Part shown: piece after piece, positions 9,405 through 31,385 of the stretch
Layout: each line of letters begins with the position of its first letter
How positions within the stretch are numbered: the stretch's first letter is position 1
NCBI GenBank assembly: GCA_049585595.1
Contig: JBAVAG010000025.1
Coordinates: forward strand, 17,632-81,631
Direction: 5' to 3'
DNA length: 64,000 nt
DNA from: Desulfobaccales bacterium
Lineage (GTDB): Bacteria > Desulfobacterota > Desulfobaccia > Desulfobaccales > 0-14-0-80-60-11
Translations under genes and position numbers: made by a program
Notes under the pieces: generated by a model
Database searches by the model: none
Told to the model about the DNA's origin: nothing
The model's input: the letters and a program-made list of their open reading frames with translations, nothing else

Positions 9405-10298
9405 ATGAGCCCTGACATGCTAGCAAAACCGACGATCAGCAGCACAGAGAGGTTTTCTGTCAAGCGGGACCGCTCCCTGGCTTCTGAGGTTATTTGGCGG
9501 AGCGGCACGGATTTGAATAAATGTTTTCGCTGCGGCACGTGCGCCAGTGGGTGCCCCTTCATCCAGGCCATGGATTATCCTCCTTTCGGGGTCTTATCGC
9601 TATTGAAGTACGGTATGCGCCAGGAGGCCCTGAGCAGTGTGACGATCTGGATGTGCGTGGGCTGCCATACCTGCTCCAGCCAGTGTCCCATGACCATTGA
9701 CATGGCGGCGGTTATGGATACCCTGCGCCACATGGCCCTGGAGGAAGGGGTGGTCCTGGCTCAGCCGGAGCCCCAGGTGCCGGCGGTGCACCGGCATGGG
9801 TGTGGGCCACTGGAAGTCCTGGTGAGGAACGGCGGTCTGAAAAATATTGCCAAGAGAAAACTCAATGGCTTGAAGTTTGTGCCTAATTACGGGTGCACCT
9901 CCTTTCGGCCACCCCAGTACCATAAGCAGGGGAAATTCATTGAGGGCGAGATGGAACGAGTCCTGATCGCCTTGGGGGCCCAGCCCCTGACCAGGACTTA
10001 CACCAATCGCTGCTGTGGCTCTTTCCTGGCCGCCAGCAGGCCGGATATCGCCACTCCCATGGTCAATACGATCATTGAAGGCGCCCAGGCCGTAGGCGCG
10101 GATTGCATCATCACGGCCTGCGCCACCTGTCAGCTCAATCTGGAGGATCGTTGTACTCTGGAAAAGAAGCTGCCCGTGTTCCATTTTTCAGAAATCCTGG
10201 CTCTGGCCTTGGGGCAAGAGTACGAGGGGTGGCCCCAACACCACCTTGTAGATCCGCAACCAATACTGCAGAAACTGGGATTGGCCAAGGAGCAATAA
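9405..10298 (+). CDS. HdrC-like 2x[4Fe-4S] domain fused to a single HdrB-type CCG domain (paralog 1)
   Basis: CFRCGTCASGCP and CVGCHTCSSQCP ferredoxin motifs, then NYGCT...RCCGSF...ACATCQLNLE (one CCG domain). Confidence 0.75.
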   Translation: MSPDMLAKPTISSTERFSVKRDRSLASEVIWRSGTDLNKCFRCGTCASGCPFIQAMDYPPFGVLSLLKYGMRQEALSSVTIWMCVGCHTCSSQCPMTIDMAAVMDTLRHMALEEGVVLAQPEPQVPAVHRHGCGPLEVLVRNGGLKNIAKRKLNGLKFVPNYGCTSFRPPQYHKQGKFIEGEMERVLIALGAQPLTRTYTNRCCGSFLAASRPDIATPMVNTIIEGAQAVGADCIITACATCQLNLEDRCTLEKKLPVFHFSEILALALGQEYEGWPQHHLVDPQPILQKLGLAKEQ

Positions 10299-10343: not shown

Positions 10344-11243
10344 ATGGCCCAACCCAACATTCCGGCAATACCCATAGACAGCAAGAAAGTAATTTTTCCT
10401 ACCAAGTGGGACCGCTCCCTGGCTACTGAGGTTATTCGACACAGCGGCACGGACCTGAATCAATGTTTTCGCTGCGGCACGTGCGCCAGTGGTTGCCCGT
10501 TCATCCGGGCAATGGATTATCCTCCTTTCGGGGTTTTAATGCTATTGCAGTACGGTTTACGCCAGGAGGCCCTGAGCTGTGCGACGATCTGGATGTGCGT
10601 GGGCTGCAATACCTGCTCCAGCGAGTGTCCCATGGCCATTGACATGGCAGCGGTGATGGATACCCTGCGCCACATGGCCCTGGAGGAAGGGGTGGTCCCG
10701 GCTCATCCGGAGCCCCCGGTGCCGGTGGTGCACCGGCATAGCTGTGGGCCATTGGAACTCCTGGTGAGGGATGTCCAGCGTCTGAAAGATACCGCCAAAA
10801 GGAACCTCAATGGCTTGAAATTTGTGCCTAATTACGGGTGCACTCTCTTTCGCCCACCCTGGCACCAGAGGCAGGGGAAATTCATCTGGGGCGAAATGGA
10901 ACGAGTCCTGAGCGCCTTGGGGGCCCAGCCCCTGCCCAGGGCTTACTCCAATCGCTGCTGTGGTTCTTTCCTGGCCGCCAGCAGGCCGGATATTGCCACT
11001 CCCATGGTCAATATGATCATTGAAGGCGCTCAGGCCGCAGGCGCGGATTGCATCATTACGGCCTGCGCCACCTGTCAGCTCAATCTGGAGAATCGTTGTA
11101 CGCTGGAGAAGAAGCTGCCCGTGTTCCATTTTTCAGAAATCCTGGCCCTGGCCTTGGGGCAAGAATATGAGGGATGGTTCAGCCGCCACCTGGTGGGTTC
11201 GGATCCGCAGCCGATGCTCCAGAAACTGGGATTGGGCGGCTAA
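10344..11243 (+). CDS. HdrC-like 2x[4Fe-4S] domain fused to a single HdrB-type CCG domain (paralog 2, tandem duplicate)
   Basis: Same architecture as 9405-10298 and about 85% identical to it. Confidence 0.75.
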   Translation: MAQPNIPAIPIDSKKVIFPTKWDRSLATEVIRHSGTDLNQCFRCGTCASGCPFIRAMDYPPFGVLMLLQYGLRQEALSCATIWMCVGCNTCSSECPMAIDMAAVMDTLRHMALEEGVVPAHPEPPVPVVHRHSCGPLELLVRDVQRLKDTAKRNLNGLKFVPNYGCTLFRPPWHQRQGKFIWGEMERVLSALGAQPLPRAYSNRCCGSFLAASRPDIATPMVNMIIEGAQAAGADCIITACATCQLNLENRCTLEKKLPVFHFSEILALALGQEYEGWFSRHLVGSDPQPMLQKLGLGG

Positions 11244-11297: not shown

Positions 11298-14200
11298 ATG
11301 AATGACAAATTACTTGGATCTGTAATGGTCGTCGGCGGAGGAATCGCCGGGATGCAGGCCGCCTTAGACATAGCCAATTCAGGCTATTACGTCCACTTGG
11401 TGGAAAAGGGGCCAGCAATCGGCGGGGTCATGGCGCAGCTCGACAAGACCTTCCCCACCAATGACTGTGCCATGTGAATTATCTCTCCCAAGCTGGTCGA
11501 GGTCGGCCGGCATATTAACATTGAGGTGCATCCTCTGACAGAGGTGCAGGAGATTACCGGGGAGCCGGGAAATTTTACAGTCACCTTAGAGAAGCAGCCC
11601 CGGTATGTCGATCTGTCCAAGTGTACGGGCTGCGGGGATTGCGCCAAAGCCTGTCCGGTAGTCATTAAAGATGAATTTAATCTGGGGCTGGCGGATGGTC
11701 GGGCTGCCTATCGCCTCTATCCACAAGCCATTCCCTCGGCCTTTTCCATCCTGAAGGCGTCCCGGGCCCCGTGTACCCGCACCTGTCCCGCCGGGATTAA
11801 TGTTCAGGGTTATGTGCAGCTTATCAAGATGAGGAAATATGAAGAGGCCCTGAAGCTCATTATGGAGCGGCTGCCTTTTCCTGGATCCCTGGGGCGCATT
11901 TGCCCCCATCCCTGCGAGGAAAAATGCCGGCGTCAGGAGATGGATGATCCGATAGCTATTTCCTGCCTGAAGCGGTTCGCGGCTGACCAAGTGGATGTAG
12001 GCCAAATCTCCTTCCCCAAAGCCGATCCCCGGAAAGAAAAGGTGGCCATCATCGGTGCCGGTCCGGCCGGGTTGACCTGCGCCTATCATCTGACCCTGCG
12101 GGGCTATCCGGCCACTGTCTTCGAGGCCCTGCCTAAGCCCGGGGGCATGCTGATGGTAGGGGTTCCGGAATATCGCTTACCCCGAGACGTCTTGGAAAAA
12201 GAGATTAACAACATCCTGAGCCTGGGGGTGGACCTGAAGACCAATATGGCCCTGGGGCGGGACTTTACCCTGAAGGAGCTGTTTGACCAGGGATACAAGG
12301 CAGTTTTCCTGGGCCTAGGTTGCCATAGAGGACTTCCCCTGGGGATTCCGGGAGAGGAAGCCGAGGGGGTCATGCAGGGGGTAGAGCTCCTGCGCCGGCA
12401 TAGTCTGGGACTACCCCTGACGGTGGGCAAACAGGTGGCGGTCATCGGCGGCGGTAACGTGGCTCTGGATGCCGCTTGCACCGCCCGGCGTTACGGCGCC
12501 AACGTCACCATTGTCTATCGCCGCTCCCGGGAGGAGATGCCCGCCCATGCCTGGGAGATCGACCAGGGATTGTGCGAAGGCGTGAGCATCCATTATCTGG
12601 TGGCGCCCTCTAAGGTCTTGTCCGAAAATGGGCGGGTCACCGGGCTGGTCGTTCAGAAAATGGAATTAGGACCGCCGGATGCCTCCGGACGGCGCCGCCC
12701 GGAACCCATCCCGGGATCAGAGTTCGAGCTGCCGTATGACATGGTGGTCCCGGCCATTGGCCAGGCCGCCGGGCTGGATCCTTTAAAGGATGATGGCATT
12801 AAATTCAGCAGTCGTGGAACCATTGAGGTGGACCCGTTGACTTACATGACCTCTCGGATGGGGGTCTTCGCCGCCGGGGATGTCCAATCCGGTCCATGGA
12901 TTGCCGTGGAGGCGATAGGCGGCGCCATTGAGGCGGCGGAGTCCATCCATCGTTATCTCCGGGATATGGATTGGGTTGCCGGTCGCATCAAAGGCGTTGA
13001 TGCCGAGGTCCGCTGGCGGGACCTTCCTAAAGACAGGTGGGGGCGGCCCCGAGAATCTATGGTCACCATCCCCCCGGAGGTCTCTTCCATCTGCTTTGCC
13101 GAGATTGCCCAGGGTTTTACCGAGGAACAGGCCCTGGAGGAAGCGGACCGCTGCATCAACTGCGGCATCTGTTCCGAATGTATGCAGTGTGTGGCAGCCT
13201 GCCAGGCCGGGGCCATCGACCACAGCCAACAGCGCCGGATAATGGACCTTAATGTGGGTTCTGTGGTGCTGGCGCCTGGCTTCCGAGCCTTTGATCCTAG
13301 CGATTATGGAAAATTTCAGTATGCCTCCCATCCCAATGTGGTGACCTCCCTGGAGTTTGAACGGATGCTTTCGGCCGGAGGGCCTTTTGCCGGGCATTTG
13401 ATCCGGCTCTCGGACCATAAAGAGCCCAAAAAGATCGCCTGGTTGCAATGCGTCGGCTCTCGCGACCTGAATCAATGTGAAAAAGGCTATTGTTCCGCGG
13501 TGTGCTGCATGTATGCCGTCAAACAAACAATGATCGCCAAAGAACACAGCAAGGAACCTCTGGATACCGCCATCTTCTTTATGGATATGCGCACTCCTGG
13601 TAAAGGGTTTGAGAAGTATTATTGGCGGGCCCAGGATGAGCTTGGGGTGCGGTTTGTCCGCTCCCGGGTACATAGTATCGAGCCGGTCCCCGGTACCGAT
13701 GATTTGACGGTGAAGTACTGGTCTGAAGACGGCTCTTTAAACACGGAATCCTTTGATATGGTGGTTCTTTCCATCGGGATGGTGATCCCCCCGGACACCG
13801 TGAAAATGGCTAAGAAGTTAGGGATAGAGCTGAGCCCCAATAACTTTGTGAGTGCAAGCTGCTTTGACCCGGTGGCCACTTCCCGGCCCGGGGTTTATAC
13901 CTGTGGAGCGTTTACCGGTCCCAAGGATATCCCTCAGTCGGTCATGGAGGCCAGCGCGGCCGCGTCGGCTTCAACCAGGGCTTTGGCTGCGGCCCGGGGC
14001 ACCTTGCAAAAGAAAAAGGAATTCCCGCCAGAGACGGAAGTGGCAGGGGAGCCAGCCAGAATTGGCGTGTTCGTTTGCAACTGCGGCATTAATATCGGCG
14101 GCATTGCCGACGTACCTGCCATCGTGGAATACGCCAGGACCATTCCCAATGTGGAATACGCGCAAGCCAACCTCTTCAGTTGCTCTCAAGACGCGCAGAA

Positions 14201-15737
14201 GCAGATGGCAGACGTAATCCAGGAACAAAAGCTGAACCGGGTGGTGGTGGCTGCCTGCAGCCCTTCCACTCACCAACCTATCTTCCAGGATATGCTGAGA
14301 AATGCGGCCTTGAACAAATATCTCTTTGAGATGGCCAATATCCGCAATCAGTGCACCTGGTGCCACCAAGCGGAGCCTGAGGCGGCCACGGAAAAATGCA
14401 AGCTCCTGGTCAATATGGCGGTGGCTAAGGCCCGGTTGCTCGAGCCCCTGGAATACATCACGGTGGACGTGACCCATAAGGCCTTGGTAATAGGCGGTGG
14501 CGTGGCGGGCATGGAAGCCAGCTTGGCCCTGGCCGATCAAGGTTATGATGTGCACCTGGTGGAGCGGCAGCCATTCCTGGGAGGTCAGGCTCTCAACCTC
14601 CATAGCACCTGGAAGGGAGAAAAAGTCCGTCCTTATGTCGAGGGTTTGATCGAAAAGGTAGCTAGGCATGACAAGATAGCCGCCCATTTAGGGTCCAACG
14701 TTACCGAGGTCCACGGGGTCGTTGGTAACTTTGCCTCGAAACTCTCCCCTGAGAATGAGGAGATCCATCACGGCATCGTCATTTTTGCCACCGGAGCTGA
14801 ACCTTATGAGCCAGAAGGCCAATTTCTGTATAAGCAAAATCCGAATGTCCTCCTTTCCCTGGACCTGGATCGGGAAATAGCCCAGGAAAGCGAGCGGCTC
14901 AAGAGCGCCGGAGCGGTAGCCTTCATCCAGTGTGTGGGCTCACGCATCCCGGAAAGGCCGTATTGCAGCAAGGTTTGCTGTTCCCATTCCGTGGAGAATG
15001 CTCTGAGGCTTAAAGAGATGAATCCGGAGAAGGATGTCTACATCATCTACCGGGATCTGCGGACCTATGGGGAAAGGGAAACCTTGTATGAAAGGGCTCG
15101 GGAAAAAGGGGTGCTTTTCTTCCGTTATGACCTGGAGGATCCACCCCTGGTGGAAGATGCCGACGGCAAAATAATCATCAAGGTCATGGATCGTGCCCTG
15201 AAGAGGCCGATAGAGCTAACCCCCGACCTCCTGGTTTTGGCTACCGCCATTGTGCCTTATGACAATACCCGCATTTCTGAACTTTACAAGGTTCCGCTTA
15301 GTTCCGAGGGCTTTTTCAATGAGGCGCACGCCAAGATCAGGCCGGTGGACTGTGCCACCGAGGGCATCTTTCTGGCAGGGCTCTGCCATTTCCCCAAACC
15401 CATAGATGAGTCCATTGCCCAGGCATTGGCGTCTGCCTCCAGGGCGTCCACTATATTGTCGAGGGATTCCCTGGAACTGGAATCCACCGTCTCCCGCCCC
15501 ATTGATGAGAACTGCGACGGCTGCGCCTTCTGTATAGACACCTGTCCGTTTAAGGCTATAACGCTGCTAGAATACATGAAAGAGGGAGGGGTGAAGAAGA
15601 CTGTAGAGATTAACGCGATCCTTTGCAAAGGTTGCGGCTCATGTATGGCCACCTGTCCCAAGCAGGGCATCAATATTGCTGGGTTTACGATGGCCCAGTT
15701 GGGTGCCCAGGTAGAGGCGGCGCTCGGATTAATCTAA
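11298..15737 (+). CDS. giant HdrA-like flavoprotein with inserted GltD/NfnB-type NAD(P)H module ('HdrL' type); in-frame TGA (probable selenocysteine) at 11475-11477
   Basis: ATG 11298 is in frame with track ORF 11526-15737. N-terminus MVVGGGIAGMQAAL..TFPTNDCAM-TGA-IISPKL, whereas paralog 17755-22236 has TFPTNDCSTCLISPKL (Cys). Contains GltD-like CPAGINVQGYV..VAIIGAGPAGL, HdrA blocks WLQCVGSRD..CCMYA and FIQCVGSR..CC, and a C-terminal 2x[4Fe-4S] domain. Confidence 0.8.
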
Positions 15738-15758
15738 GGCTAAAAAAGGAGTGCTAAG

Positions 15759-16178
15759 ATGAGCGACCAATATGAACCACTAGTGATCTCCTTCTGTTGC
15801 AACTGGTGTTCCTATGCCGGGGCAGATCTCGCAGGGGTCTCCAGGATTCAGTATCCGCCGAACGCGGTTATCATCCGGGTGATGTGCTCCGGGATGGTCC
15901 ATCCCAATCTGGTGATCGACGCCTTTACCAAAGGAGCTGACGGCGTCCTGGTATGCGGCTGACACCTGGGCGAATGTCATTACCTGGATGGTAATAAAAA
16001 AGCGAAAGACAGGGCAGAAGCTTTAGAGTTAATGTTGGAGGACTTTGGTTTGGAGCCGGAGCGCTTCCGCCTGGAGTGGATTTCTTCCTCGGAGGCCCAG
16101 AAATTCGCGGACGTGATGCGGGATATGATCGAGACGGTGCGGGCCTTGGGCCCCAGCTCTTATAGCACCAGGGCTTGA
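15759..16178 (+). CDS. mvhD: MvhD-type [2Fe-2S] subunit; in-frame TGA (probable selenocysteine) at 15960-15962
   Basis: Track ORF stops at ...[12 protein letters not shown]. The same frame continues [21 protein letters not shown]...[11 protein letters not shown]...LGP to TGA 16176-16178. The TGA occupies the Cys of the MvhD G-C-x3-C-H motif. Confidence 0.75.
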
Positions 16179-16270
16179 CTTGGCGCAGGCAGTTTAAGCC
16201 TGCGGCCACAATCTTTTTTTTATAATGGGAAATAGACCAATCGAGATCTCTTAAACAGGAGTTAATCCTG

Positions 16271-16852
16271 ATGGAAATCAACCTGAACCAACCGCTGGTT
16301 CCTTCTTTTTCCCTACAGGAGCGCCTGGCCGGGGCAGGGGCCACGCCGGTGTCTTCCTGTTATCAGTGTAAGAAGTGCTCCGCGGGCTGTCCTCTGACCT
16401 TTGCCATGGATCTGCTCCCGGACCGGGTCATGCGCCTGGCCATCCTGGGTCAGACGGAAGCGCTCTTGGGCTGCCGGACCATTTGGGTCTGCGCCGCCTG
16501 CGTCACTTGCAGCACCCGCTGTCCCAACGGCATTGACATCGCCGGGGTCATGGACCGGCTCAAGCAAGAGGCGCTCCGGCAGGGCAAAGCCATCGATCAA
16601 CCGGAGGTGGCGGCCTTCCATCGCTTCTTCCTGGACAGCGTCCGCCGGGCTGGCGGCCGCCTACCGGAAATGGCGCTGATGCGCCGCTTTACCCTGTTTA
16701 AACTTCGGCGGCGGCCCCAAATCGGAGAGCTTTGGGAAAATGCCAAACTTGGCTGGGGCCTCTTCAAACGCGGCCGGCTACGTCTATCAGGCCCCCCGGC
16801 CCTCAAGGGGCGGGATGAGATCAAAAAAATCTTTAAGAACACGGGGGCTTAA
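16271..16852 (+). CDS. hdrC: heterodisulfide reductase subunit C-like protein
   Basis: CYQCKKCSAGCP and CAACVTCSTRCP motifs, size about 190 aa. Confidence 0.8.
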   Translation: MEINLNQPLVPSFSLQERLAGAGATPVSSCYQCKKCSAGCPLTFAMDLLPDRVMRLAILGQTEALLGCRTIWVCAACVTCSTRCPNGIDIAGVMDRLKQEALRQGKAIDQPEVAAFHRFFLDSVRRAGGRLPEMALMRRFTLFKLRRRPQIGELWENAKLGWGLFKRGRLRLSGPPALKGRDEIKKIFKNTGA

Positions 16853-16859
16853 GGCACTC

Positions 16860-17696
16860 ATGAAGGTATCCTATTATCCCGGCTGTTCCCTGGAAGGCAC
16901 TGCATCGGATTACGGCGCCTCCATCGCCGCGGTCACTTCCTTGCTGGGGGTGGAGTTGGCGGAGCTGGAGGATTGGAACTGCTGCGGCGCCACCGCTGCT
17001 CACAGCCTCAATCATCAACTCTCTTTCGAGCTTCCGGCCCGCAACCTGGCCCTGGCCCAGAAGGCTGAACGAGACGTGGTGGTGCCGTGTGCCCTGTGTT
17101 TCAATCGGCTCAAGACTGCTGAAAAGGAGCGGCAGCTCCGGGACGAGGTCCTGGGAGATGGCGTCAAGATCTGGGACCTCCTGGACTTTTTCGCCCAGGA
17201 GTCATTTCTGGCCATCCTGAAGAAGAAGATAGTGCGCCCCCTCACCGGGTTGAAGGCGGTGGGCTATTACGGCTGCCTGACATCACGGCCACCGGCCATC
17301 ACCGATAAAGCGGATTGGGAAAACCCTAAAGAAATGGAGCGGTTGCTTAAAGTGCTCCAGGCCGAGCCCCTGGACTGGTCCTACAAGACCGATTGCTGCG
17401 GCGCCGGCCTGGCGATGTCCCGACCGGATCTTATCGATACCCTGGTGAGTCGCCTCTATGACCGGGCCCTGGCGGCCGGGGCGGAGTGTTTCGTGGTCTC
17501 TTGCCAGATGTGCCAGACCAACCTGGACTTAACCCAAGAGCGCATATCAAAGAAATTAAATAAAGATTACTACTTGCCAGTGTTCTATTTTACCGAGCTG
17601 ATCGGCCTGGCCCTGGGGCACCCGGAGGTGGAGGGCTGGCTGGTCCGCCATCTGGTGGACCCGCGCCCCTTGCTGCGGGATAAAGGACTGATGTGA
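16860..17696 (+). CDS. hdrB: heterodisulfide reductase subunit B-like protein (two CCG domains)
   Basis: YYPGCSL...NCCGATA...PCALCFNRL and YYGCLTS...DCCGAGL...SCQMCQTNLD. Start set at ATG 16860, just after the hdrC stop. Confidence 0.85.
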   Translation: MKVSYYPGCSLEGTASDYGASIAAVTSLLGVELAELEDWNCCGATAAHSLNHQLSFELPARNLALAQKAERDVVVPCALCFNRLKTAEKERQLRDEVLGDGVKIWDLLDFFAQESFLAILKKKIVRPLTGLKAVGYYGCLTSRPPAITDKADWENPKEMERLLKVLQAEPLDWSYKTDCCGAGLAMSRPDLIDTLVSRLYDRALAAGAECFVVSCQMCQTNLDLTQERISKKLNKDYYLPVFYFTELIGLALGHPEVEGWLVRHLVDPRPLLRDKGLM

Positions 17697-17754
17697 TGAG
17701 CAGGCGTGGTCTTCCCCTACCGAACCACAACGCCCATCAAAATGGAAAAAACTT

Positions 17755-20700
17755 ATGACTACTGACAAGACGAAAACCGGCGCCATTAGCGTGATAGGGG
17801 GCGGCATCGCCGGCATGCAGGCCGCCCTGGATGCAGCCAATGCCGGTTTCAAGGTCTATCTGGTGGAGAAGGATATCTCCATCGGCGGGGTCATGGCCCA
17901 GTTGGACAAGACCTTTCCCACCAACGATTGCTCCACCTGCTTGATCTCCCCCAAGCTCATCGAGGTGGCCCGGCATCCGGACATCGAAATCATCACGCAG
18001 TCGGAGATCGCCGGCGTGGAGGGTGAGGCGGGCCGTTTCACCATCACCCTGCACCAGGAACCTCGCTACATCGACCCGGCCAAGTGCAACGCCTGCGGAG
18101 CCTGTGCGGAAGCCTGCCCGGTGCACCTGCCTTCGACCTTCGATGAAGGTTTGGGGGTACGCCCCGCCGCCTACCGGCATTTCCCCCAGGCGATTCCCGC
18201 CACCTTTGCCATCATGAAGGCCTCCCGGGCCCCCTGCGTGCGGGCCTGCCCGGCCAATTTGAGCGCCCAGGGCTACGTCCAGTTGATCAAGGAGCACAAA
18301 TTCCCGGAGGCCCTGGCCATTATCATGGACCGGCTGCCGCTGCCGGGGACCATCGGCCGCATCTGCCCGCATCCCTGCGAGGTCGACTGCCGGCGCCAGG
18401 AAGTGGATGAGCCCATCGCCATCTGCAACCTGAAGCGCTTCGTGGCCGACACCGTGGATTGGAGCACCCTGCCGGTGCCCGAAATCCCCCAGAGGAGCGA
18501 AAAGGTGGCCATCCTCGGGGCCGGTCCCTCGGGATTGAGTTGCGCCTACCACCTGGCCAGGAAGGGCATCCAGACGGTGATTTTCGAGGCTGCGCCTGAG
18601 GCTGGCGGCTGGCTGCGCTATGGCATCCCGGAATACCGGCTGCCCAGGAACGTGCTGCAGCAAGAAGTGGACTATATTCAGCGCCTGGGCGTACAGATCA
18701 ACTATAACTCCCCCATCGGCAAAGGCCGCACCATCAACGACCTGCTGACCCGGGACGGCTTCAACGCCGTGTTTATCGGGGTCGGAGCCCAGGATTCGCT
18801 GCGCATTCCGGTTCCCGGCCATGAGGCCCAAGGGGTCCTCTGGGGGGTCGAGTACCTCAAAGACTCGGCCATGGGCAAAAAGCTGGACTTGTCTGGCAAG
18901 AAGGTGCTGGTCATTGGCGGCGGCAACGTCGCCATGGACGCGGCCCGCACTGCGGTGCGGCAGAAGGGTAAAGTCACCCTGATCTGTCTGGAGTCGCCCG
19001 AAGAGATGCCCGCCTCCCCTTGGGAAGTGGAAGAGGCCAGGCACGAAGGCGTGGAGATCGTCACCCGCTGGGGCGTCAAGCAGGTCTTGGAGAAGGGCGG
19101 TAAGGTCACCGGCATCGAACTGAAGGCGGTGGAGCGGGTCTTTGACGAGCAGGGCCGCTTTGCCCCCACCTACTTTGAAGATCAGACCAGGCCCGAGACG
19201 GCCGACGTCATCATTATGGCCATCGGCCAGAAAACTGACCTGAGGTTCCTCACCGAAGCCGATAAAATCCAGCTCACTCCCCGGGGCCTCATCCAGGCGG
19301 ACCCGGTCACCAAGGCCACCAGCTGGGAAGGCGTCTTTGCCGGCGGCGATGTGGAGACCGGCCCCTATATCGCCATTGCCGCGGTGGCCGCGGGCCGCGA
19401 GGCGGCGGAGTCCATTGACCGCTACCTCCAGGGGAAGGATTCGCAGGCCGGCCGCGATCTGCCGCTGCGCCCCCTTCCAAAGGAACAGGGCAATTGGGCG
19501 CCCATCCGGGCCGACATTGAGAAGAAGCCGCGGGCCATGATACAGACCCCGCCGGTGGAAGAATGGATCAAGAGTTTTAAGGAAATCAACCTGGGCTACA
19601 GCGAAGCAGAAGCTGTGGCCGAAGCGGACCGCTGCATCAACTGCGGCATCTGTTCCGAATGTATGCAGTGTGTGGCTGCCTGCCAGGCCGGGGCCATCAA
19701 TCACCAGGATCAGCCCCGGACCCGGCAGCTCGAGGTGGGGGCCATGATCCTGGCCCCGGGCTTCCGGCCCTTCGACGCCGGGGAGAAGCCCGAATACGGT
19801 TACGGCCGCTATCCCAACGTGGTGACCTCGCTACAATTCGAGCGCCTCCTTTCCGCCACCGGGCCTTATGAGGGGCATGTCCTGCGTCCCAGTGACGGCG
19901 CCCCGCCCCGCAAGGTGGCTTGGATCCAGTGCGTGGGCTCCCGGGATGCCTCCTGCGGCCGGGAATACTGTTCCTATGTGTGCTGCATGTACGCCACCAA
20001 GCAGGCTATCATCGCCCGGGAGCACGACCACAACGTAGAACCCACCATTTTTTACATAGACTTACGGGCCCAGGGGAAGGGCTTCGACCGCTACGCCGAG
20101 CGGGCCGAGAAACAACACGGGGTGCGCTATGTCCGTAGTATGGTCTCCCGGGTGGCCCAGGATCCCCGCACTAAAAATCTGGAACTCAGTTTTGTGGATG
20201 ACTCCGGCCAGGTGCAAAGCGAAGTCTTTGACATGGTGGTGCTCTCCGTGGGCCTGAACCCCCATCCGGCTGCCCGGGAAATGGCGGCCAGGTGCGGCAT
20301 CGACACGGACCGCTACGGCTTTGCCGTGAGTCCGCCCCTGGAGCAGCCGTCCACCTCCCGGCCAGGGATCTTCGCCTGCGGCGTCTTCCAGTCTCCCAAG
20401 GACATCCCGGAGACCGTGGGCCAGGCTTCCGGCGCCGCCGGGGCGGCAGCGTCCATGCTCGCCGAGGCCCGGGGCACCCTGCTCACCAAGGAAGAATATC
20501 CTCCGGAAAAGGACATCAGCGGGGAGGCCCCCCGGATCGGCGTCTTTATTTGCCATTGTGGCATCAACATCGCCGGGGTGACGGACGTGGCGGCGGTGAC
20601 CGAATTCGCCCGGACGTTGCCCGACGTGGTCTACGCCGACGACTATACCTTCACCTGCTCCACCGATTCCCTGGACAGGATGCGCCAGGTGATCGAAACC

Positions 20701-22236
20701 GAAAACCTCAACCGGGTGGTGGTGGCCTCCTGCAGCCCCCGGACCCACGAACCCCTGTTCCAGGAGAACCTGCGGAAGGCCGGGTTGAACAAGTACCTCT
20801 TCGAAATGACCAACATCCGGGACCAGGACTCCTGGGTGCACCAGGGAACCCCGGAGTTGGCTACTGAGAAGGCCAAGGAACTGGTGCGCATGTCGGTGGC
20901 CCAGGCCCCCATCCTGGAGCCTTTGGACGACCTGCTCTTCCCGGTTAGCCAGCAGGCCCTGGTGGTGGGCGGCGGCCTGGCCGGCCTGACGGCCGCCCTG
21001 ACCATTGCCGACGGCGGCTACCAGGTCTATCTGGCGGAGTTGGAGGACCGGCTGGGCGGCAGCCTGGCCCGGCGGATGCGCCGCACCTTGGAGGGCCATG
21101 AAGTCCAGCCTTATCTCCAGGAACTGGTGGCCCGGGTGGAAAACCACCCCCGCATTGACTGGTTGCCCAACACCCAGGTCCTAAACGTGAAGGGCCATAT
21201 CGGCAAATTCCAGGGCACCCTGGAATCGGGCGAGGGCCGCCGGGAGGTGGAATTCGGCGCGGTGGTGATTGCCACCGGCGGTGAGGAATATAAACCGGAA
21301 GAATACCTTTACGGCCAGGACCCCCGAGTCCTTACCCAATTGGAAGTGGAGAACCTGCTGGCGGAATCCCCCGAAACCCTAGGCGCCGCTCCCAGGGTGG
21401 TGATGATCCAATGCGTCGGCTCCCGGGAGCCGGAACATCAGTATTGCAGCCGCACTTGCTGCGGCGAGGCCGTCAAGAACGCCATTACCATCAAGGAGCT
21501 CAATCCAGCCGCCCAGGTCTTCATCCTCTACCGGGATATCCGGACCTATGGCCTCAAGGAGATTTTCTACAAGAAGGCCCGGGAGCTGGGGGTGCAGTTC
21601 GTGCGCTTCGAGGTGGAGCAGAAACCGGAAGTGCAGGCCACGGGCCAGGGCCTGGAAATATCGGTCTTCGACCAGTCGTTGCAAGCGAACCTGGCGCTGG
21701 CCGCCGATTACCTGGTGCTCTCGACGGCCATCCGGCCCCATCCGATGAGCCGGAAAATCGCCCGGGTCTTCAAGCTGCCTTTTGACGCCGACGGCTTCTT
21801 CATGGAAGCCCACCTGAAACTGCGGCCCCTGGATTTCGCCGCCAGCGGCATCTTCCTCTGCGGGCTGGCTCACTGTCCCAAGTTTCTGGAGGAAAGCCTG
21901 GCCCAGGCCAAAGGCGCGGCGGCCCGGGCCCTGGGGGTGCTGGCCCACGCGGAGATGTACGTGGCCGGCACGGTGGCCCAGGTAGACCCGCTAAAATGCG
22001 TCGCCTGCCTGACCTGCTTGCGCACCTGTCCCTTCGGGGTCCCCAGGATGGATGAAGGCGAGGGGGTGGTGGTCATCGACCCCGCCTCCTGTCACGGCTG
22101 CGGCAGCTGCGCCAGCGCCTGCCCCCGGAAGGCCATTGCGGTGAGTCACTACCTGGACAACCAATTTAATGCCAAGATTTGCGCCTGCTGCACGCCCTTG
22201 CCCAAGGTCGACTTAAGCGAAAGGATTGGAGCCTGA
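17755..22236 (+). CDS. giant HdrA-like flavoprotein with GltD/NfnB-type module ('HdrL' type), Cys form
   Basis: Same domain order as 11298-15737. Cys sits at the position of the Sec codon in the paralog. Confidence 0.85.
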   Translation: MTTDKTKTGAISVIGGGIAGMQAALDAANAGFKVYLVEKDISIGGVMAQLDKTFPTNDCSTCLISPKLIEVARHPDIEIITQSEIAGVEGEAGRFTITLHQEPRYIDPAKCNACGACAEACPVHLPSTFDEGLGVRPAAYRHFPQAIPATFAIMKASRAPCVRACPANLSAQGYVQLIKEHKFPEALAIIMDRLPLPGTIGRICPHPCEVDCRRQEVDEPIAICNLKRFVADTVDWSTLPVPEIPQRSEKVAILGAGPSGLSCAYHLARKGIQTVIFEAAPEAGGWLRYGIPEYRLPRNVLQQEVDYIQRLGVQINYNSPIGKGRTINDLLTRDGFNAVFIGVGAQDSLRIPVPGHEAQGVLWGVEYLKDSAMGKKLDLSGKKVLVIGGGNVAMDAARTAVRQKGKVTLICLESPEEMPASPWEVEEARHEGVEIVTRWGVKQVLEKGGKVTGIELKAVERVFDEQGRFAPTYFEDQTRPETADVIIMAIGQKTDLRFLTEADKIQLTPRGLIQADPVTKATSWEGVFAGGDVETGPYIAIAAVAAGREAAESIDRYLQGKDSQAGRDLPLRPLPKEQGNWAPIRADIEKKPRAMIQTPPVEEWIKSFKEINLGYSEAEAVAEADRCINCGICSECMQCVAACQAGAINHQDQPRTRQLEVGAMILAPGFRPFDAGEKPEYGYGRYPNVVTSLQFERLLSATGPYEGHVLRPSDGAPPRKVAWIQCVGSRDASCGREYCSYVCCMYATKQAIIAREHDHNVEPTIFYIDLRAQGKGFDRYAERAEKQHGVRYVRSMVSRVAQDPRTKNLELSFVDDSGQVQSEVFDMVVLSVGLNPHPAAREMAARCGIDTDRYGFAVSPPLEQPSTSRPGIFACGVFQSPKDIPETVGQASGAAGAAASMLAEARGTLLTKEEYPPEKDISGEAPRIGVFICHCGINIAGVTDVAAVTEFARTLPDVVYADDYTFTCSTDSLDRMRQVIETENLNRVVVASCSPRTHEPLFQENLRKAGLNKYLFEMTNIRDQDSWVHQGTPELATEKAKELVRMSVAQAPILEPLDDLLFPVSQQALVVGGGLAGLTAALTIADGGYQVYLAELEDRLGGSLARRMRRTLEGHEVQPYLQELVARVENHPRIDWLPNTQVLNVKGHIGKFQGTLESGEGRREVEFGAVVIATGGEEYKPEEYLYGQDPRVLTQLEVENLLAESPETLGAAPRVVMIQCVGSREPEHQYCSRTCCGEAVKNAITIKELNPAAQVFILYRDIRTYGLKEIFYKKARELGVQFVRFEVEQKPEVQATGQGLEISVFDQSLQANLALAADYLVLSTAIRPHPMSRKIARVFKLPFDADGFFMEAHLKLRPLDFAASGIFLCGLAHCPKFLEESLAQAKGAAARALGVLAHAEMYVAGTVAQVDPLKCVACLTCLRTCPFGVPRMDEGEGVVVIDPASCHGCGSCASACPRKAIAVSHYLDNQFNAKICACCTPLPKVDLSERIGA

Positions 22237-22239
22237 GAG

Positions 22240-22680
22240 ATGGAATACAATCCGAGGATACTGGCCTTTGTTTGCACCTACTGCACCTACACGGCCGCAG
22301 ATATGGCGGGGTCGGCCCGGATGCAGTACCCCTACAACGTGCGCATCGTCAAGTTCCTGTGCACCGGCCGGATAGACATCATCCACATTTTGAAGGCCTT
22401 TGAGGCTGGCGCCGACGCCATCTTCGTGGGCGGCTGAGAGTTCGGAAACTGTCATTTCCTGGAAGGAAATCTCAGGGCCCGGGAACGAGTGGAATATGCG
22501 CAACAATTACTGGAAGAGACCGGTCTGGGGGCGGACCGCCTGGCCATGTATGAGATCGGTGCCTCTGAGGCCCCCAAGTGGGTGGCGGCGGTGAACGAAA
22601 TGACGGAAAAAGCTAAAGCTCTGGGGCCCAATCCTTTGAACCCGAGTTGGGGAGTAAAGGCAGTGGTCCCGAAAAACTAG
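22240..22680 (+). CDS. mvhD: MvhD-type [2Fe-2S] subunit; in-frame TGA (probable selenocysteine) at 22435-22437
   Basis: ...GADAIFVGG-TGA-EFGNCHFLEGNLRARERVEYAQQLL... joins track ORFs 22240-22437 and 22489-22680 in one frame. Same position as in the 15759-16178 gene. Confidence 0.75.
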
Positions 22681-22696
22681 AACTGGCGGTGCAAAG

Positions 22697-23377
22697 ATGA
22701 TCATCGCGGAACGGAAGCCCTTTGCGGAAATCAAGACGGCAGTGGCGCCCTTTGAGAAGGTCCTCTTTGTCGGGTGCGGCACCTGTGTGGCGGTTTGCCT
22801 GGCGGGCGGGGAAAAAGAGGTGGGGCTGCTGGCCTCCCAACTGAAGCTCGCCCGGGGACAGGAAGGCAAGCAGCCGAAGATCGGGGAGATCACGGTGGAG
22901 CGCCAGTGCGACCTGGAATTCATCCGGCCCCTGAGCGAGGCGGTCGCCGAGTATGACGCAGTCATTTCCACTGCCTGCGGCGCCGGGGTGCAGTTCCTGG
23001 CGGCCCTGCCCGAAATGAAACCGGTCTTCCCGGCCCTCAACACCACCTTCATCGGGGTCAACGAGGACGCAGGGTTTTATACCGAGCGCTGCCGGGCCTG
23101 CCACCAGTGTTACCTGGGAATCACCGGGGGGATTTGCCCGATGACCATGTGTCCCAAGGGATTGCTCAACGGTCCCTGCGGCGGCAACATCCGGGGCAAG
23201 TGTGAGGTCAATCCCGACCGGGACTGCGCCTGGTGCGAGATTTATGCCAGGCTGGAACGGCAAGGCCGGTTGGGGCAGATCGAACCGATTCTGCCGCTGC
23301 ACCCCTACGGCCGCAGCGTCACCCCGGGCACTGTGATCCACCCGGGTTATAAGAGGAGGTATGGCCTCCATGAGTAA
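22697..23377 (+). CDS. metV: MetV (methylene-THF reductase-associated Cys-rich small subunit)
   Basis: CRACHQCYLGITGGICPMTMCPKGLLNGPCGG motif. Lies directly upstream of metF and overlaps it. Confidence 0.8.
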   Translation: MIIAERKPFAEIKTAVAPFEKVLFVGCGTCVAVCLAGGEKEVGLLASQLKLARGQEGKQPKIGEITVERQCDLEFIRPLSEAVAEYDAVISTACGAGVQFLAALPEMKPVFPALNTTFIGVNEDAGFYTERCRACHQCYLGITGGICPMTMCPKGLLNGPCGGNIRGKCEVNPDRDCAWCEIYARLERQGRLGQIEPILPLHPYGRSVTPGTVIHPGYKRRYGLHE

Positions 23378-24254
23378 GCTCAAGGAAGCTTTGGAAGGTG
23401 GCCAGTTCCCCATCGTCATGGAAATTAAACCTCCTAAGGGCATTGACCTGGAGGGAATGCTGACTCCGGTGAAATCGCTCAACGGGAAGGTGACCGCCTT
23501 TGGGATTCCGGACAATGAAGATGCCAAGATGAAACTCTCGCCCCTGGCAGCGGCCAGGCTGGTCCAAGAGGCCGGAGGTGAACCCTTGCTCTTCATGACC
23601 TGCCGGGATCGCAACCGCCTGGCCCTGGAGAGCGATTTGCTGGGCGCCGGCGCCCTGGGCATAGAAAATATCTTGGCGTTGAGCGGCGATTTCGTCAGCC
23701 TGGGTGATCATCCCGACACCAAGCCGGTCTATGACGCCGACTCGGTACAGCTCCTGCAAATCGCCCGGGGGTTGATGACAGGTCATGATAGCGCCGGTCT
23801 TTCCCTGAAGGGAAACCCCCAATTCTATCTGGGCGCGGTCCTCATCCCGGAGGCCGACCCGGTAGCTCCCCAGCTCCTCAAGGTTAAGAAAAAGCTGGAG
23901 GCAGGAGTCGAATTTTTTATCACGGCACCCATGTTCACCGTGGAGAAGTTCCGCCAGTTCAGGCAATCATTGGGTTCCCCGGCTGTAAAATTTATGGCCT
24001 GCCTCAAGGTCCCCGAGGCCTCGGAAGTGGAGGCGGCTTCCTCGGGCCAGCACCGGAAGGTCTATTCCCTGCCCCCCGATGTAGTCCAGGAACTGGCCGG
24101 GACTGATCCCGAAGAAGTCTTGCAGAAGGGCGCCGCTCTGACCGGCCGTCTGCTCAAAGAGATTAGAGAGCAAAAGCTCGCCGACGGCGTCTATGTGAAA
24201 GCCCGTGGCCGGGGCGACCTGATGGCCCAGATTTTGAAGACCGCGGGTGCCTAA
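23361..24254 (+). CDS. metF: 5,10-methylenetetrahydrofolate reductase MetF
   Basis: TIM-barrel MTHFR pattern: VMEIKPPKG...FGIPDN...FMTCRDRNR...ILALSGD. Confidence 0.85.
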   Translation: MASMSKLKEALEGGQFPIVMEIKPPKGIDLEGMLTPVKSLNGKVTAFGIPDNEDAKMKLSPLAAARLVQEAGGEPLLFMTCRDRNRLALESDLLGAGALGIENILALSGDFVSLGDHPDTKPVYDADSVQLLQIARGLMTGHDSAGLSLKGNPQFYLGAVLIPEADPVAPQLLKVKKKLEAGVEFFITAPMFTVEKFRQFRQSLGSPAVKFMACLKVPEASEVEAASSGQHRKVYSLPPDVVQELAGTDPEEVLQKGAALTGRLLKEIREQKLADGVYVKARGRGDLMAQILKTAGA

Positions 24255-24272: not shown

Positions 24273-25520
24273 ATGAGAGACGATAAAGTCAATCCGGTGG
24301 TAGTCCTGGGCGGCGGCATTGCTGGGATTACCGCAGCCCTGGAGTTAAGCCGGGCCGGATTGGAGGCGGTCCTGGTGGAGAAGAGCCCCTTTTTCGGCGG
24401 GCGGGCCGCCAGCTTCGGCTGCAAAGCCACCGAGGTCTGCCAGCAATGTGGCGCCTGCCGGGTCGAACAAGGTTTGCGAGACCTGTTTTCGGCGCCGGGC
24501 CTCACCCTTTATGCCCACACGGAGCTGCTGGAAAGCCGGTCTGTTAACGGTTTGCTGCACCTGACCCTGAAGTCGCAGCCCCAGGTAATCGACTCCCACC
24601 GCTGCATCGATTGCGGCCTTTGCCTGGAGGAGTGCCCGGCGCCGGGAGGCGTGATAAGTGCGGCCTCCGCCGAGAACCATCCCCGTTTTGCGGTGAATCC
24701 GGCCGCCTGCCTCTATTTTCAAGACGGCTCCTGCCGCCGCTGCCAGGACCTCTGCCCCACCCAGGCCATCGATCTGGCCAGGTCCGAGACCGTGAGGCAA
24801 CTGGAGACCCCGAGCCTTATCTTGGCTACCGGCTATCAACCTGGGCAGCCTCCCTCCCGGGTGGCTTATACCAATTACTGCTGGCCCAACATCATCACCG
24901 GCCGGGAATTGGAGGAATTGATGCGGCAGGGCGGGCCTCTGCTCAGGCCCGGCGACGACCGGCCGGTGCGGCGTCTGGCCTTCATCCAGTGCGCGGGCAG
25001 CCGGGACCGGGAGCATTCGTATTGCTCCCGGGTCTGCTGCGCCTATGGGTTGCGCCTGGCTCGGCTGATCCACCATCGTTGGCCGGAGTGCCAGGTGACC
25101 ACTTTTTACATGGATCTGCAAAACATCGGCCCGGACCCCGAGAATTTCGAGGCTGCCGCCAGGCGGGAATTAGAATTGATCCGGGCCCTCCCCGGGGACG
25201 TGGTCGCCACGGACGATGGGGCCTTGAAATTGCCCTTTTTGGATGAAGCGAGCAACCGGGTGCGGTTTCGGGTGGTGGACCTCTTGGTCCTGGCAGTGGG
25301 TATCGCTCCTGGGCCAGACAACGTCAAACTGGCGGAAATGCTGCACCTGCAACTGAATCCGGACGGCTTCCTTAAGGACGGTCTGGATGGCACCCGGGCC
25401 GAAGCTCCAGGGATTTTCCTGGCCGGGACCGCCACCGGTCCCCAAAGCATCCTGGAATGCATCGCCCAGGGGACCCGGGCGGTCCGGCAGGTGCGTCAAT
25501 ATCTGGAGGCAAGGACGTGA
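24273..25520 (+). CDS. short HdrA-like FAD/FeS oxidoreductase
   Basis: VVLGGGIAGITAAL FAD fold, CIDCGLCLEECP and CRRCQDLCP clusters, FIQCAGSRD..YCSRVCC HdrA signature. Confidence 0.75.
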   Translation: MRDDKVNPVVVLGGGIAGITAALELSRAGLEAVLVEKSPFFGGRAASFGCKATEVCQQCGACRVEQGLRDLFSAPGLTLYAHTELLESRSVNGLLHLTLKSQPQVIDSHRCIDCGLCLEECPAPGGVISAASAENHPRFAVNPAACLYFQDGSCRRCQDLCPTQAIDLARSETVRQLETPSLILATGYQPGQPPSRVAYTNYCWPNIITGRELEELMRQGGPLLRPGDDRPVRRLAFIQCAGSRDREHSYCSRVCCAYGLRLARLIHHRWPECQVTTFYMDLQNIGPDPENFEAAARRELELIRALPGDVVATDDGALKLPFLDEASNRVRFRVVDLLVLAVGIAPGPDNVKLAEMLHLQLNPDGFLKDGLDGTRAEAPGIFLAGTATGPQSILECIAQGTRAVRQVRQYLEART

Positions 25521-29571: not shown

Positions 29572-31374
29572 ATGAATGCCAGCGGTTGGACCCAATTAAT
29601 TCTCTTCAGCGTCATCCTGCTGGCCCTCACCAAGCCCATGGGGCTATACCTGGTGCAGGTGCTGGATGCCAACGGCCGGACCTTCCTCGACCCGGTCTTA
29701 AAGCCGGTGGAGCGCCTGATCTATCGCCTGGCGGGCATCGATCCGACCAGGGAGCAGGACTGGAAAGGCTACGCCATCTCCGTCCTGATCTTCAGCCTGG
29801 TCACCATGATGTTGACCTATTTCATCCTGCGGCTGCAATACCTTCTGCCCCTTAACCCCCAGGGTTTTGCCGGGGTGGCCGGGGATCTTTCCTTTGAGAC
29901 CGCGGCCAGCTTCCTCGCCAACGCCAGCTATCAGAACTATATCGGTGAAAACACCATGTCCTACCTCTCCCAGATGGTGGCCCTGGCCTCACACTGCTTT
30001 TTCTCAACGGCCACGGCCATCGCTGTCGCAGCCGCCCTGGTGCGGGGTCTCGCCCGGGATAAGGCTGCGACCCTGGGGAATTTCTGGACCGACATGATCC
30101 GCAGCTGCCTTTACCTGCTGCTGCCCATCTCTCTGGTGTTTGCCGTGTTTTTGGTCTCCCAGGGGATGATCCAGAACTTCAGCGCCTACACCACGGCCCA
30201 GGTGATGGAACCTGTTACCACCCAGGTCGCCAAGAAGGACGCCAGCGGCCAGGAGGTCAAGGACGCCCAGGGCAACACGGTGCTGGAGAATGTTAAGGTG
30301 CGGACCCAGACCATCCCCCAGGGTCCCATGGCCTCCCAGGTATCCATCAAGATGCTGGGAAGCAATGGCGGCGGCTTCACCAACGCCAATGCCGCCCATC
30401 CCTTCGAGAATCCCACGCCGCTGTCGAACTTCATCCAGATGCTGTCCCTCTTCCTGATACCCAGCGGCCTCACTTATTACCTGGGCCGCCAGTTAAGGAA
30501 CCAGAAGCACGGCTGGTCGGTGTGGGCCGCTATGTTTTTACTCTTCCTGGTGGGCGTGCTCATCTGCTGGGGGGCGGAAACCTATGGCGACCCGCGGCTG
30601 ACGGCCCTGGGCCTCGACCCCACCACCAGCGCCATGGAAGGCAAGGAAGTCCGCTTCGGCATCTTTAATTCCGCTCTGTTTGCCACGATAACCACGGACT
30701 CCTCCTGCGGTGCGGTCAACGCCATGCTTGACTCCTTCACGCCCCTGGGCGGCCTGGTGCCGATGTTCAACATCCATCTGGGCGAGGTCATCTTCGGCGG
30801 CGCCGGGGCCGGCCTCTTCGGCATGCTGGTCTACGTGGTCCTGGCCATCTTCCTGGCGGGCCTGATGGTGGGCCGAACCCCGGATTACCTGGGAAAAAAG
30901 ATCGAGTCCTTCGACGTCCAGGTGGCGGCCCTGTCTATTCTGGTGCCCAGCGTCTTCCTGCTTGGCTTCAGCGCCTTGGCCGCCTCCAGCCAGTGGGGCG
31001 TCCAGCCTTTAGGCAATAGCGGACCCCACGGCTTCAGCGAGATACTCTACGCCTTCACTTCCTGTATCGGCAACAACGGCAGTGCCTTTGCGGGCCTGTC
31101 GGCCAACACCCTCTAGTATAACCTGACTCTGGGGCTGGCCACCCTGGTCGGCCGCTTCTTAACCATCGTGCCGGTATTGGCGCTGGCGGGCAGCCTGGGG
31201 GCCAAAAAGACCATGGCGGTGAGCCCCGGCAGTTTTCCGGTTTCCGGGGTCACTTTTACCCTTCTCCTCGTGGGCACCGTCATCATTGTGGGAGCCCTGA
31301 CCTTCTTTCCGGCCGTCAGCCTGGGTCCCATTGTGGAGCACTTCATCATGATTAATTCTAACAAGTTATTCTAA
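29572..31374 (+). pseudogene. kdpA: KdpA (K+-translocating subunit) interrupted by one in-frame TAG at 31114-31116
   Basis: Track ORFs 29572-31116 and 31168-31374 share a frame. The sequence across the stop, GLSANTL-TAG-YNLTLGLATLVGRF...GAKK...GALTFFPAVSLGPIVEH, is the conserved KdpA C-terminus. Confidence 0.7.
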
Positions 31375-31385
31375 GGGCTCCGACG

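Follow-up and report, generated by a model that had tools for sequence, protein, structure and literature searches.

Three in-frame TGA codons as probable selenocysteine codons in a tandem hdrL-mvhD locus of a Desulfobaccales-like bacterium

Do the TGA codons that interrupt three genes of one Hdr-type locus in a Desulfobaccales bacterium end these genes, or are they read as selenocysteine (Sec)? The question is raised by a stretch of 64,000 nucleotides (nt), hereafter the window (assembly GCA_049585595.1, contig JBAVAG010000025.1, positions 17,632 to 81,631 of the forward strand; all coordinates below are those of the window), in which a plain list of open reading frames breaks the genes hdrL1, mvhD1 and mvhD2 at TGA 11475, 15960 and 22435, respectively. 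A first-pass annotation of this DNA had suggested that the three codons probably encode Sec. This suggestion is supported by columns that hold only Cys or TGA in 80 related loci, by hairpins associated with the TGAs and by the match of one of them to residue 197 of HdrA, and we consider it very probable, from these comparisons of sequence, that all three are Sec codons.

When the TGAs are read through, each gene becomes a single frame on the + strand. hdrL1 extends from ATG 11298, the start assigned in the first-pass annotation, to TAA 15737 (1479 codons, including one predicted Sec codon), and translation shows its sole in-frame stop to be TGA 11475-11477, in the context DKTFPTNDCAM-U-IISPKLVEVGR; from its homologue column and the HdrA alignment this codon is predicted to be Sec60 of a C57-x-x-U60 motif. 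mvhD1 (15759-16178, +; PF02662; 139 codons with one predicted Sec codon) starts 22 nt past the hdrL1 stop and is interrupted only by TGA 15960-15962, predicted from the MvhD alignment column to be Sec68 in the motif G-U-x-x-G-x-C-H. mvhD2 (22240-22680, +; PF02662; 146 codons, again with one predicted Sec codon) is interrupted only by TGA 22435-22437, the predicted Sec66 according to a motif search and the orthologue in locus L002, in the context GADAIFVGG-U-EFGNCHFLEGN. The sequences and coordinates quoted for the three TGAs in the first-pass annotation were thus exact, and its statement that the frames stay open and conserved across them held as well. The Pfam family FlpD (PF02662) spans the TGA in both MvhD read-through products over its whole profile (1-123/123), at residues 9-131 of MvhD1 (E 8.7e-54) and 7-129 of MvhD2 (E 1.7e-46). 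HdrL1 shares with HdrL2 the Pfam domain series of an HdrA-type flavin adenine dinucleotide (FAD) domain, a Fer4_20 + Pyr_redox_2 insert, a second HdrA-type domain and C-terminal ferredoxins, and its orthologues match residues 1-1479. In a codon-usage scan of every window TGA with at least 40 open codons on both sides, the TGAs of hdrL1, mvhD1 and mvhD2 ranked within the top five, alongside the nonsense codon of mgtC and a junction between genes. The window also supplies the Cys partners that had been proposed for these columns: hdrL2 (17755-22236, +), which reads TFPTNDCSTC-LISPKL, has TGC 17938-17940 in the Sec column, and an MvhD-like (FlpD) domain (27158-27517, +; residues 568-687) of a 996-residue multidomain protein, whose gene lies at 25457-28447 (+; Pfam), has TGT 27338-27340 (Cys628).

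A single HdrL1 scan of GTDB species-representative genomes provided the comparison set of 80 loci, from Desulfobaccales, Syntrophobacterales, Desulfarculaceae, Adiutrix, Anaerolineae and Dehalococcoidia assemblies, and motif searches in these loci yielded 100 HdrA-type sites and 95 true MvhD sites. The HdrA column contains a Cys codon at 90 sites and TGA at 10, the MvhD column a Cys codon at 54 and TGA at 41, and neither contains any other residue. When 91 distinct MvhD sequences are aligned with MAFFT, positions 14, 17, 43, 68 and 73 are invariant Cys/Sec, position 68 being C in 52 sequences and U in 39. Such Cys-or-TGA columns are, as read from the alignments, the classical signature of Sec/Cys pairs, which excludes random nonsense mutation. 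TGA-HdrL is present in loci L001-L004, L007, L011, L019 and L080, and TGA-MvhD in Desulfobacterota, Anaerolineae and Dehalococcoidales assemblies. Across the set, predicted Sec-MvhD is far commoner than Sec-HdrL and spans Desulfobacterota and Chloroflexota, with a nearly identical hairpin in both.

The HdrL proteins of the closest relatives, L001 and L002, are 91% identical to HdrL1 of the window. L002, an independent metagenome-assembled genome with 85-94% amino-acid identity, retains all three TGAs; its MvhD2 orthologue escaped the motif search, having Tyr in place of the motif His, and keeps the TGA. Between the window and L002, most substitutions, before and after each TGA alike, are synonymous or fall at third positions, and in the 59 codons upstream of the hdrL1 TGA all four changes are synonymous (4/4).

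Two side observations concern the distribution of these genes. Sec usage is asymmetric: a TGA-hdrL with a visible downstream mvhD always has a TGA-mvhD (L002, L003, L004, L007, L011, L080), and many loci pair a Cys-hdrL with a TGA-mvhD, as do hdrL2 and mvhD2 of the window. In addition, L001 is a 4.5-kb contig (JBEKVC010000117.1) labelled 'Terriglobia bacterium' whose hdrL, 91% identical to the window gene, shares the TGA; Deltaproteobacteria or Desulfobaccales is the label of the remaining close relatives of the window genes, and this contig is probably mis-binned.

Bacterial recoding of UGA depends on a selenocysteine insertion sequence (SECIS) element, for which the published bacterial model specifies a loop of 3-9 nt, an (upper) stem of 4-16 bp, a G in the first two loop positions, a UGA-loop spacing of 16-37 nt and a minimum free energy of -7.5 kcal/mol or lower (PMC13188914). 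Folding of the 66 nt past each TGA into the minimum-free-energy structure, a check proposed with the original suggestion, gave a SECIS-like hairpin after each of the three. That of hdrL1, GCUGGUCG-AGGU-CGGCCGGC (11492-11511, +), has an 8-bp stem and a 4-nt loop beginning 22 nt past the UGA, and by itself reaches -12.5 kcal/mol. The mvhD1 minihelix, AUUACC-UGGAU-GGUAAU (15979-15995, +), has 6 bp and a spacing of 22 nt. In the same register, mvhD2 forms AUUUCC-UGGAA-GGAAAU (22454-22470, +; 6-7 bp, loop (U)GGA(A), spacing 22-23 nt), with a compensatory A-U to U-A change relative to mvhD1 and -14 kcal/mol when the flanks are included. Counted from the U of UGA, GG stands at +27/+28 in all three hairpins, which agree with the published values, mvhD1 reaching the energy value only with flanking pairs. 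They resemble the Escherichia coli fdhF SECIS, which is likewise an in-frame hairpin right after the UGA with a small apical loop whose GG/GU is needed for SelB binding. In fdhF the loop GG lies at +22/+23, versus +27/+28 here; unlike fdhF, the window hairpins show no evident bulged U, and the MvhD helix is only 6 bp long and A/U-rich. Lengthening the MvhD hairpin at its base by pairs 17:39 and 18:38 was considered and rejected, since these pairs mostly fail to form among orthologues.

The hairpins accompany the TGA rather than the gene family. All six pairs of the MvhD helix are present in 35 of 35 distinct TGA-MvhD sequences versus 4 of 54 Cys-MvhD sequences (Fisher p = 1e-20), and the loop GG is found in 34 of the 35 distinct TGA forms; the HdrL hairpin (7-8 of 8 pairs) is present in 8/8 distinct TGA forms versus 13/90 Cys forms (p = 1e-6). 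Synonymous choice is fixed in TGA-MvhD only, where the His codon is CAT in 35/35 (23/54 in Cys forms) and the Asn codon AAT in 35/35 (27/54 in Cys forms). Tyr-TAC occurs with Gly-GGT and Phe-TTC with Gly-GGA, a covariation that amounts to one compensatory A-U/U-A pair and is carried by four sequences from at least three lineages. When the Cys paralogues of the window are placed in the same register, hdrL2 forms 4/8 pairs and the FlpD domain of the 996-residue protein 2/6, with no hairpin after its TGT. A simple SECIS-like rule (a stem of at least 6 bp whose loop contains GG and starts 24-30 nt from the U) is passed by the TGAs of hdrL1, mvhD1 and mvhD2 and by 44 of all 1787 TGA triplets (2.5%); none of 16 genuine terminator TGAs passes, and the nonsense TGA of mgtC fails too. 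An Rfam scan of the window matched no SECIS family, only two cyclic di-GMP riboswitches, and is uninformative on these hairpins.

Some Cys-codon forms nevertheless hold a perfect hairpin in the SECIS register (L051:10178; L032:14872; L075:19474; L028:14863; L077:5240), and in the Cys-form hdrL of L051 the hairpin, GCTGGTCG-AGGT-CGGCCGGC, is identical; these could possibly be fossil SECIS elements left by recent Sec-to-Cys conversions. The tract [YF]-L-[ED]-G-N is found in 34/35 TGA-MvhD sequences, whereas no fewer than 25 different tripeptides occupy the same positions in the Cys forms. The MvhD SECIS seems to constrain this protein motif, an RNA signal shaping protein sequence.

A tRNA-Sec gene with anticodon TCA occurs in one of the 80 loci, L004, at 3487-3580 (-) (ARAGORN; Rfam RF01852, 78.3 bits). 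It shares its contig with a TGA-hdrL (L004:10178) and a TGA-mvhD (L004:15115) and lies ~6.6 kb upstream of the former. Judged by this gene, at least one organism with orthologous TGAs is Sec-competent. The gene adjoins a tRNA-Gln gene; no selA or selB lies beside it, its neighbours being GlnRS, PFK-like and FKBP genes.

Two further genes of the window carry in-frame stops and show how a real nonsense codon behaves under the same tests. The mgtC/sapB gene (36899-37597, +) has, by homologue alignment, an in-frame TGA at 37361-37363. It was rejected as a fourth Sec codon: it occupies a nearly invariant Arg column (VC-R-AEDE; CGA to TGA) and has no hairpin. The mgtC homologues are full-length, with up to 93% identity (the 93% one labelled Desulfobaccales), and the window copy differs at further conserved columns (R to C, W to R); it is likely a pseudogene or an error-prone region. 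In the kdpA gene (29572-31385, +) of a kdpABC operon, the frame runs on past TAG 31114-31116 (ANTL*YNL) to a normal C-terminus; a Sec reading was rejected here too, the codon being TAG and aligning with Pro in the second kdpA copy of the window. This second kdp operon (40942-46031, -) is intact.

Several points weigh against reading the three TGAs as Sec codons. The TGA/Cys counts lack phylogenetic independence, and TGA-HdrL is limited to one Desulfobaccales-like clade. A tRNA gene search and the Pfam domains of the open reading frames showed no selA, selB, selC or selD in the 64-kb window, which has zero tRNA genes and whose large GTPase (34131-35984) is BipA, not SelB; the Sec competence of this particular genome is presumed. 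The MvhD minihelix is weak alone (-4.3 to -4.7 kcal/mol; MvhD1 -4.7), and MvhD1 gives -7.1 kcal/mol for 45 nt and -11.6 for 66 nt, passing the -7.5 threshold only with flanking pairs. The 66 nt past the TGAs fold no better than shuffled sequences (z = -1.18, -0.47 and +0.27); since these scores are not significant, stability was dropped as a criterion, and register-specific pairing and the comparison of TGA with Cys forms were used. Just one of the six MvhD helix pairs covaries, and the hairpin overlaps the conserved protein motif CH[YF]L[ED]GN, so that its conservation is partly a protein constraint. Finally, the plain nonsense codons in mgtC (TGA) and kdpA (TAG) indicate that the genome or its assembly carries disrupted genes. 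These two stops lend some weight to the view that the TGAs of hdrL1, mvhD1 and mvhD2 are likewise nonsense mutations or assembly errors (TGC or TGT to TGA) and the genes pseudogenes or sources of truncated or split products, and an open-reading-frame list does split the three genes mechanically. TGAs in the same columns, however, recur (10 in HdrL, 41 in MvhD) across two phyla, in assemblies that several studies produced independently, all three persist in L002, purifying selection acts in frame on both sides of every TGA, and the hairpin goes with the TGA and not with Cys codons; truncation would, moreover, cut the FAD-binding fold off HdrL1 and split the invariant Cys set of MvhD. We regard mutation or error as exceedingly improbable.

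UGA might instead be read as a standard amino acid, through a reassigned code (Trp/Gly), a suppressor tRNA or near-cognate read-through (Trp/Cys). The lack of Sec machinery in the window would suit such a reading, and in other systems Cys is inserted at Sec codons under selenium limitation. TGA, however, terminates 16 of 37 checked window genes; it is a normal terminator here, and a reassigned code is therefore excluded. The aligned columns contain only Cys in homologues, never Trp or Gly, the hairpins fit the SelB-dependent SECIS model (PMC13188914), and the relative L004, with the same TGAs, has a tRNA-Sec gene, all of which makes a standard amino acid very improbable. A third possibility keeps the TGAs as true Sec codons and adds a selenium-responsive switch like that of Methanococcus Vhu/Vhc, in which low selenium would lead to a stop at the UGAs, so that only the Cys-HdrL2 complex is made. 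Cys-HdrL2 does lie 6 kb downstream of Sec-HdrL1, and in Desulfobacterium autotrophicum the Sec and Cys paralogues of Hdr and Mvh have been proposed to replace each other functionally when selenium is limiting (PMC2702500). Yet HdrL1 and HdrL2 are merely 47% identical and differ in their partner genes (two HdrC/HdrB fusions for HdrL1; separate hdrC and hdrB genes plus metVF for HdrL2). From this identity and these contexts they are, as sequences, old paralogues and do not form a matched pair of Sec/Cys isoenzymes. Cys-HdrL2, moreover, comes with Sec-MvhD2, so that the downstream set would not be selenium-independent, and the window has no separate Cys-MvhD gene, its sole Cys version being the domain of the 996-residue protein. 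We consider the switch unlikely. The same facts qualify the description of the locus, in the first-pass annotation, as a compact natural experiment on Sec/Cys usage: a predicted Sec-HdrL does lie beside a Cys-HdrL, with two Sec-MvhD copies, whereas the two HdrL proteins are too divergent and too differently placed to be a matched pair, and the coexistence of Sec and Cys paralogues of HdrL and MvhD had already been described in D. autotrophicum (PMC2702500).

For Sec codons at the three TGAs, we propose the following course, modelled on the established bacterial mechanism. During translation, the hairpin in the coding sequence, which begins 14-16 nt past the last base of the UGA and offers GG at the +27/+28 positions of its apical loop, would recruit SelB with Sec-tRNA(Sec), and the ribosome would insert Sec rather than terminate. 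Read-through would yield a 1479-residue HdrL1 with Sec60 and both MvhD proteins at full length, their Sec lying in the invariant G-[C/U]-x-x-G-x-C-H motif, and the locus would encode flavin-based electron-bifurcating Hdr-type complexes.

Where the selenium would sit can be estimated from known structures. HdrL1 was mapped onto the HdrA structures 5ODC and 8RVU, and its residue 60 aligns with Cys197 of 5ODC_A. Residue 197 is Sec197 in Methanococcus maripaludis HdrA (PMC13518236), so that alignment with known Sec-HdrA, another check that had been suggested, places U60 at the Sec position; CxxU is also the listed motif of HdrA selenoproteins (PMC13188914). The predicted Sec thus falls within DKTFPT[NL]DC-x-x-[C/U], the motif that this family carries in its thioredoxin-reductase-like FAD domain. 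Cys197 is a ligand given by one HdrA to the [4Fe-4S] cluster in the N-terminal domain of its partner, and fused HdrAs show complementary loss of Cys197 and of the N-terminal domain (PMC9012536). A cryo-electron microscopy study in M. maripaludis reports density attributed to a Cys-Sec bridge that links the A3 [4Fe-4S] cluster with FAD, and terms its role unresolved (PMC13518236). By alignment, Sec60 is the counterpart of archaeal Cys197/Sec197, which in solved complexes is either a [4Fe-4S] ligand of the partner N-terminal domain or part of a Cys-Sec bridge from this cluster to the bifurcating FAD.

HdrL1 shows the same module complementarity as the fused HdrAs. Its first part is an HdrA-like flavin module that lacks the N-terminal FeS domain and carries an NfnB/GltD-like NAD(P)H module as an insert; a complete second HdrA module follows. 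Residues 1 to ~900 begin directly at the FAD fold and carry C57xxU60; residues 144-540 are Fer4_20 + Pyr_redox_2 inside the HdrA-type domains (Pfam), with matches to NfnA, NfnB and GltD structures over residues 142-231; and residues ~917-1479 match HdrA over its whole length, N-terminal FeS domain included, with LNLHSTWKGEKV where the DKTFPTxDCxxC motif would be. Since the first module has the CxxU motif and lacks the N-terminal domain, Sec60 would most likely serve the cluster of the second module within the same chain, in a built-in, intramolecular pseudo-heterodimer. HdrL1 could therefore be considered, quite tentatively, as a single-polypeptide model for deciding whether residue 197 is a static [4Fe-4S] ligand or a redox-active Cys-Sec relay to the bifurcating FAD, as was asked in 2026 of the Hdr super-assembly of methanogens. 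If Sec60 were indeed a selenylsulfide relay in a pseudo-heterodimer, this would provide a bacterial system for testing the contribution of selenium to flavin-based electron bifurcation, with the colinear Cys paralogue HdrL2 nearby.

For MvhD, the relatives with solved structures, at the 46-52% level, are 5ODC_D, 8RVU_F and 7BKB_F, and U68 of MvhD1 aligns with Cys67 of 5ODC_D. The predicted Sec is one of five invariant Cys positions, versus four ligand sites of the [2Fe-2S] cluster, and probably sits at or beside this cluster, as far as the alignment places it. The alignment prints Cys throughout for the M. maripaludis VhuD sequences of the PDB, in which the archaeal Sec positions are not visible.

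Sec forms of HdrA, MvhD/FrhD and HdrL with Cys paralogues are already published, having been described since 2006-2009 (PMC1794560, PMC2702500). In 2006, HdrA and FrhD/MvhD already ranked third and fourth by number among bacterial selenoprotein families, with multiple copies in Syntrophobacter, Syntrophus, Moorella and others (PMC1794560), and a 2026 review lists the HdrA and MvhD/FrhD selenoprotein families with their motifs (PMC13188914). The genome paper of D. autotrophicum HRM2 (Strittmatter et al. 2009) defined HdrL and reported Sec-HdrL1/L3 and Sec-MvhD1/2/3/5, with Cys paralogues in each group (PMC2702500). HdrL1 of the window belongs to this subtype, having HdrA domains, a GltD/NfnB-like NAD(P)H module and mvhD next to it (PMC2702500). 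Compared by description, the two loci share a fusion of HdrA with an NAD(P)H oxidoreductase followed by mvhD, the possibility for both genes to encode selenoproteins, and coexisting Sec and Cys paralogues. Unlike HRM2, the lineage here is nearest to Desulfobaccales-type metagenome-assembled genomes, and two hdrL-mvhD sets stand in tandem, with metV-metF attached to the second; in HRM2, dsrABC comes after HdrL1 (PMC2702500).

With the HdrA selenoproteins, including that of M. maripaludis, HdrL1 shares the Sec column 197 and the motif DKTFPTNDC-x-x-U (PMC13518236, PMC13188914, PMC1794560). Unlike archaeal HdrA, it is a 1479-residue double-HdrA fusion with an inserted NfnB/GltD-like module, its predicted SECIS is a bacterial in-frame hairpin and not an element of the 3' untranslated region, and the N-terminal FeS domain served by Cys197 in the archaeal protein is found further along the same polypeptide, in its second module. 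The window MvhDs are like the MvhD/FrhD/VhuD selenoproteins in being full-length FlpD proteins whose gene directly follows an hdrA-type gene (PMC1794560, PMC13188914). They would each contain one Sec, unlike archaeal VhuD, for which the table of the review gives up to two (PMC13188914).

The locus as a whole consists of two sets of genes. Upstream of hdrL1 are two genes for HdrC/HdrB fusions (HdrD-like; 9405-10298 and 10344-11243, +), each with Fer4_8 and CCG domains. Their closely similar products of 297 and 299 residues combine an HdrC-like 4Fe-4S dicluster with a single HdrB-like CCG domain and are likely the partner subunits of HdrL1. Between mvhD1 and hdrL2 lie an hdrC-like gene (16271-16852, +; Fer4_17) and an hdrB-like gene (open reading frame 16740-17696, +; two CCG domains), and mvhD2 is directly followed by metV (22697-23377, +; PF12225) and then metF (23361-24254, +; PF02219). 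The genes hdrC, hdrB, hdrL2, mvhD2, metV and metF are thus contiguous over 16271-24254, all on the + strand. The locus has no mvhA or mvhG, that is, no genes for a hydrogenase large or small subunit.

By gene content and order, the hdrL2-mvhD2 set sits in a methylene-tetrahydrofolate reductase gene cluster of the Moorella type. The Moorella thermoacetica cluster is presented as HdrCBA-MvhD-MetVF (PMC5736913, PMC9012536, PMC7911925), and the two clusters agree in the contiguous series hdrC, hdrB, hdrA-type gene, mvhD, metV and metF. By analogy, we infer that HdrC, HdrB, HdrL2, MvhD2, MetV and MetF form such a reductase, which would operate in the Wood-Ljungdahl pathway of this Desulfobaccales-like bacterium. 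Like Moorella HdrA, the HdrA-type subunit is a two-module fusion in which one module lacks the N-terminal domain and the other Cys197 (PMC9012536); unlike it, the subunit here has the extra NfnB/GltD-like NAD(P)H module that makes it an HdrL. The Moorella selenoproteome includes one HdrA and one FrhD (PMC1794560), and in the Moorella-type set of the window HdrL2 is the Cys form and the predicted Sec is in MvhD2 only. The organism probably invests selenium in electron-bifurcating Hdr/MetFV machinery, as do other energy-limited anaerobes.

The locus does not add a new selenoprotein family, recoding mechanism or enzyme class, and specialists would find it unsurprising; the one slightly new aspect is that HdrL offers a single chain in which to consider the role of residue 197. 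Its practical value lies in correct gene models and in a comparative data set on MvhD and HdrL SECIS elements. Gene callers will fragment hdrL1, mvhD1 and mvhD2, for which the correct models are a 1479-residue HdrL1 (U60), a 139-residue MvhD1 (U68) and a 146-residue MvhD2 (U66).

Two minor features complete the window. The gene of the 996-residue protein, directly after metF and an hdrA-like gene, is an unusual fusion, joining an HdrA-like C-terminal part, two 4Fe-4S motifs, the FlpD domain, a molybdopterin-dinucleotide-binding domain and a glycine-cleavage-H-like domain. Near the window start, two tandem c-di-GMP-I-GGC riboswitch aptamers (RF03167) lie ~300 nt apart, at 296-370 (-; 72.6 bits) and 592-666 (-; 65.2 bits).

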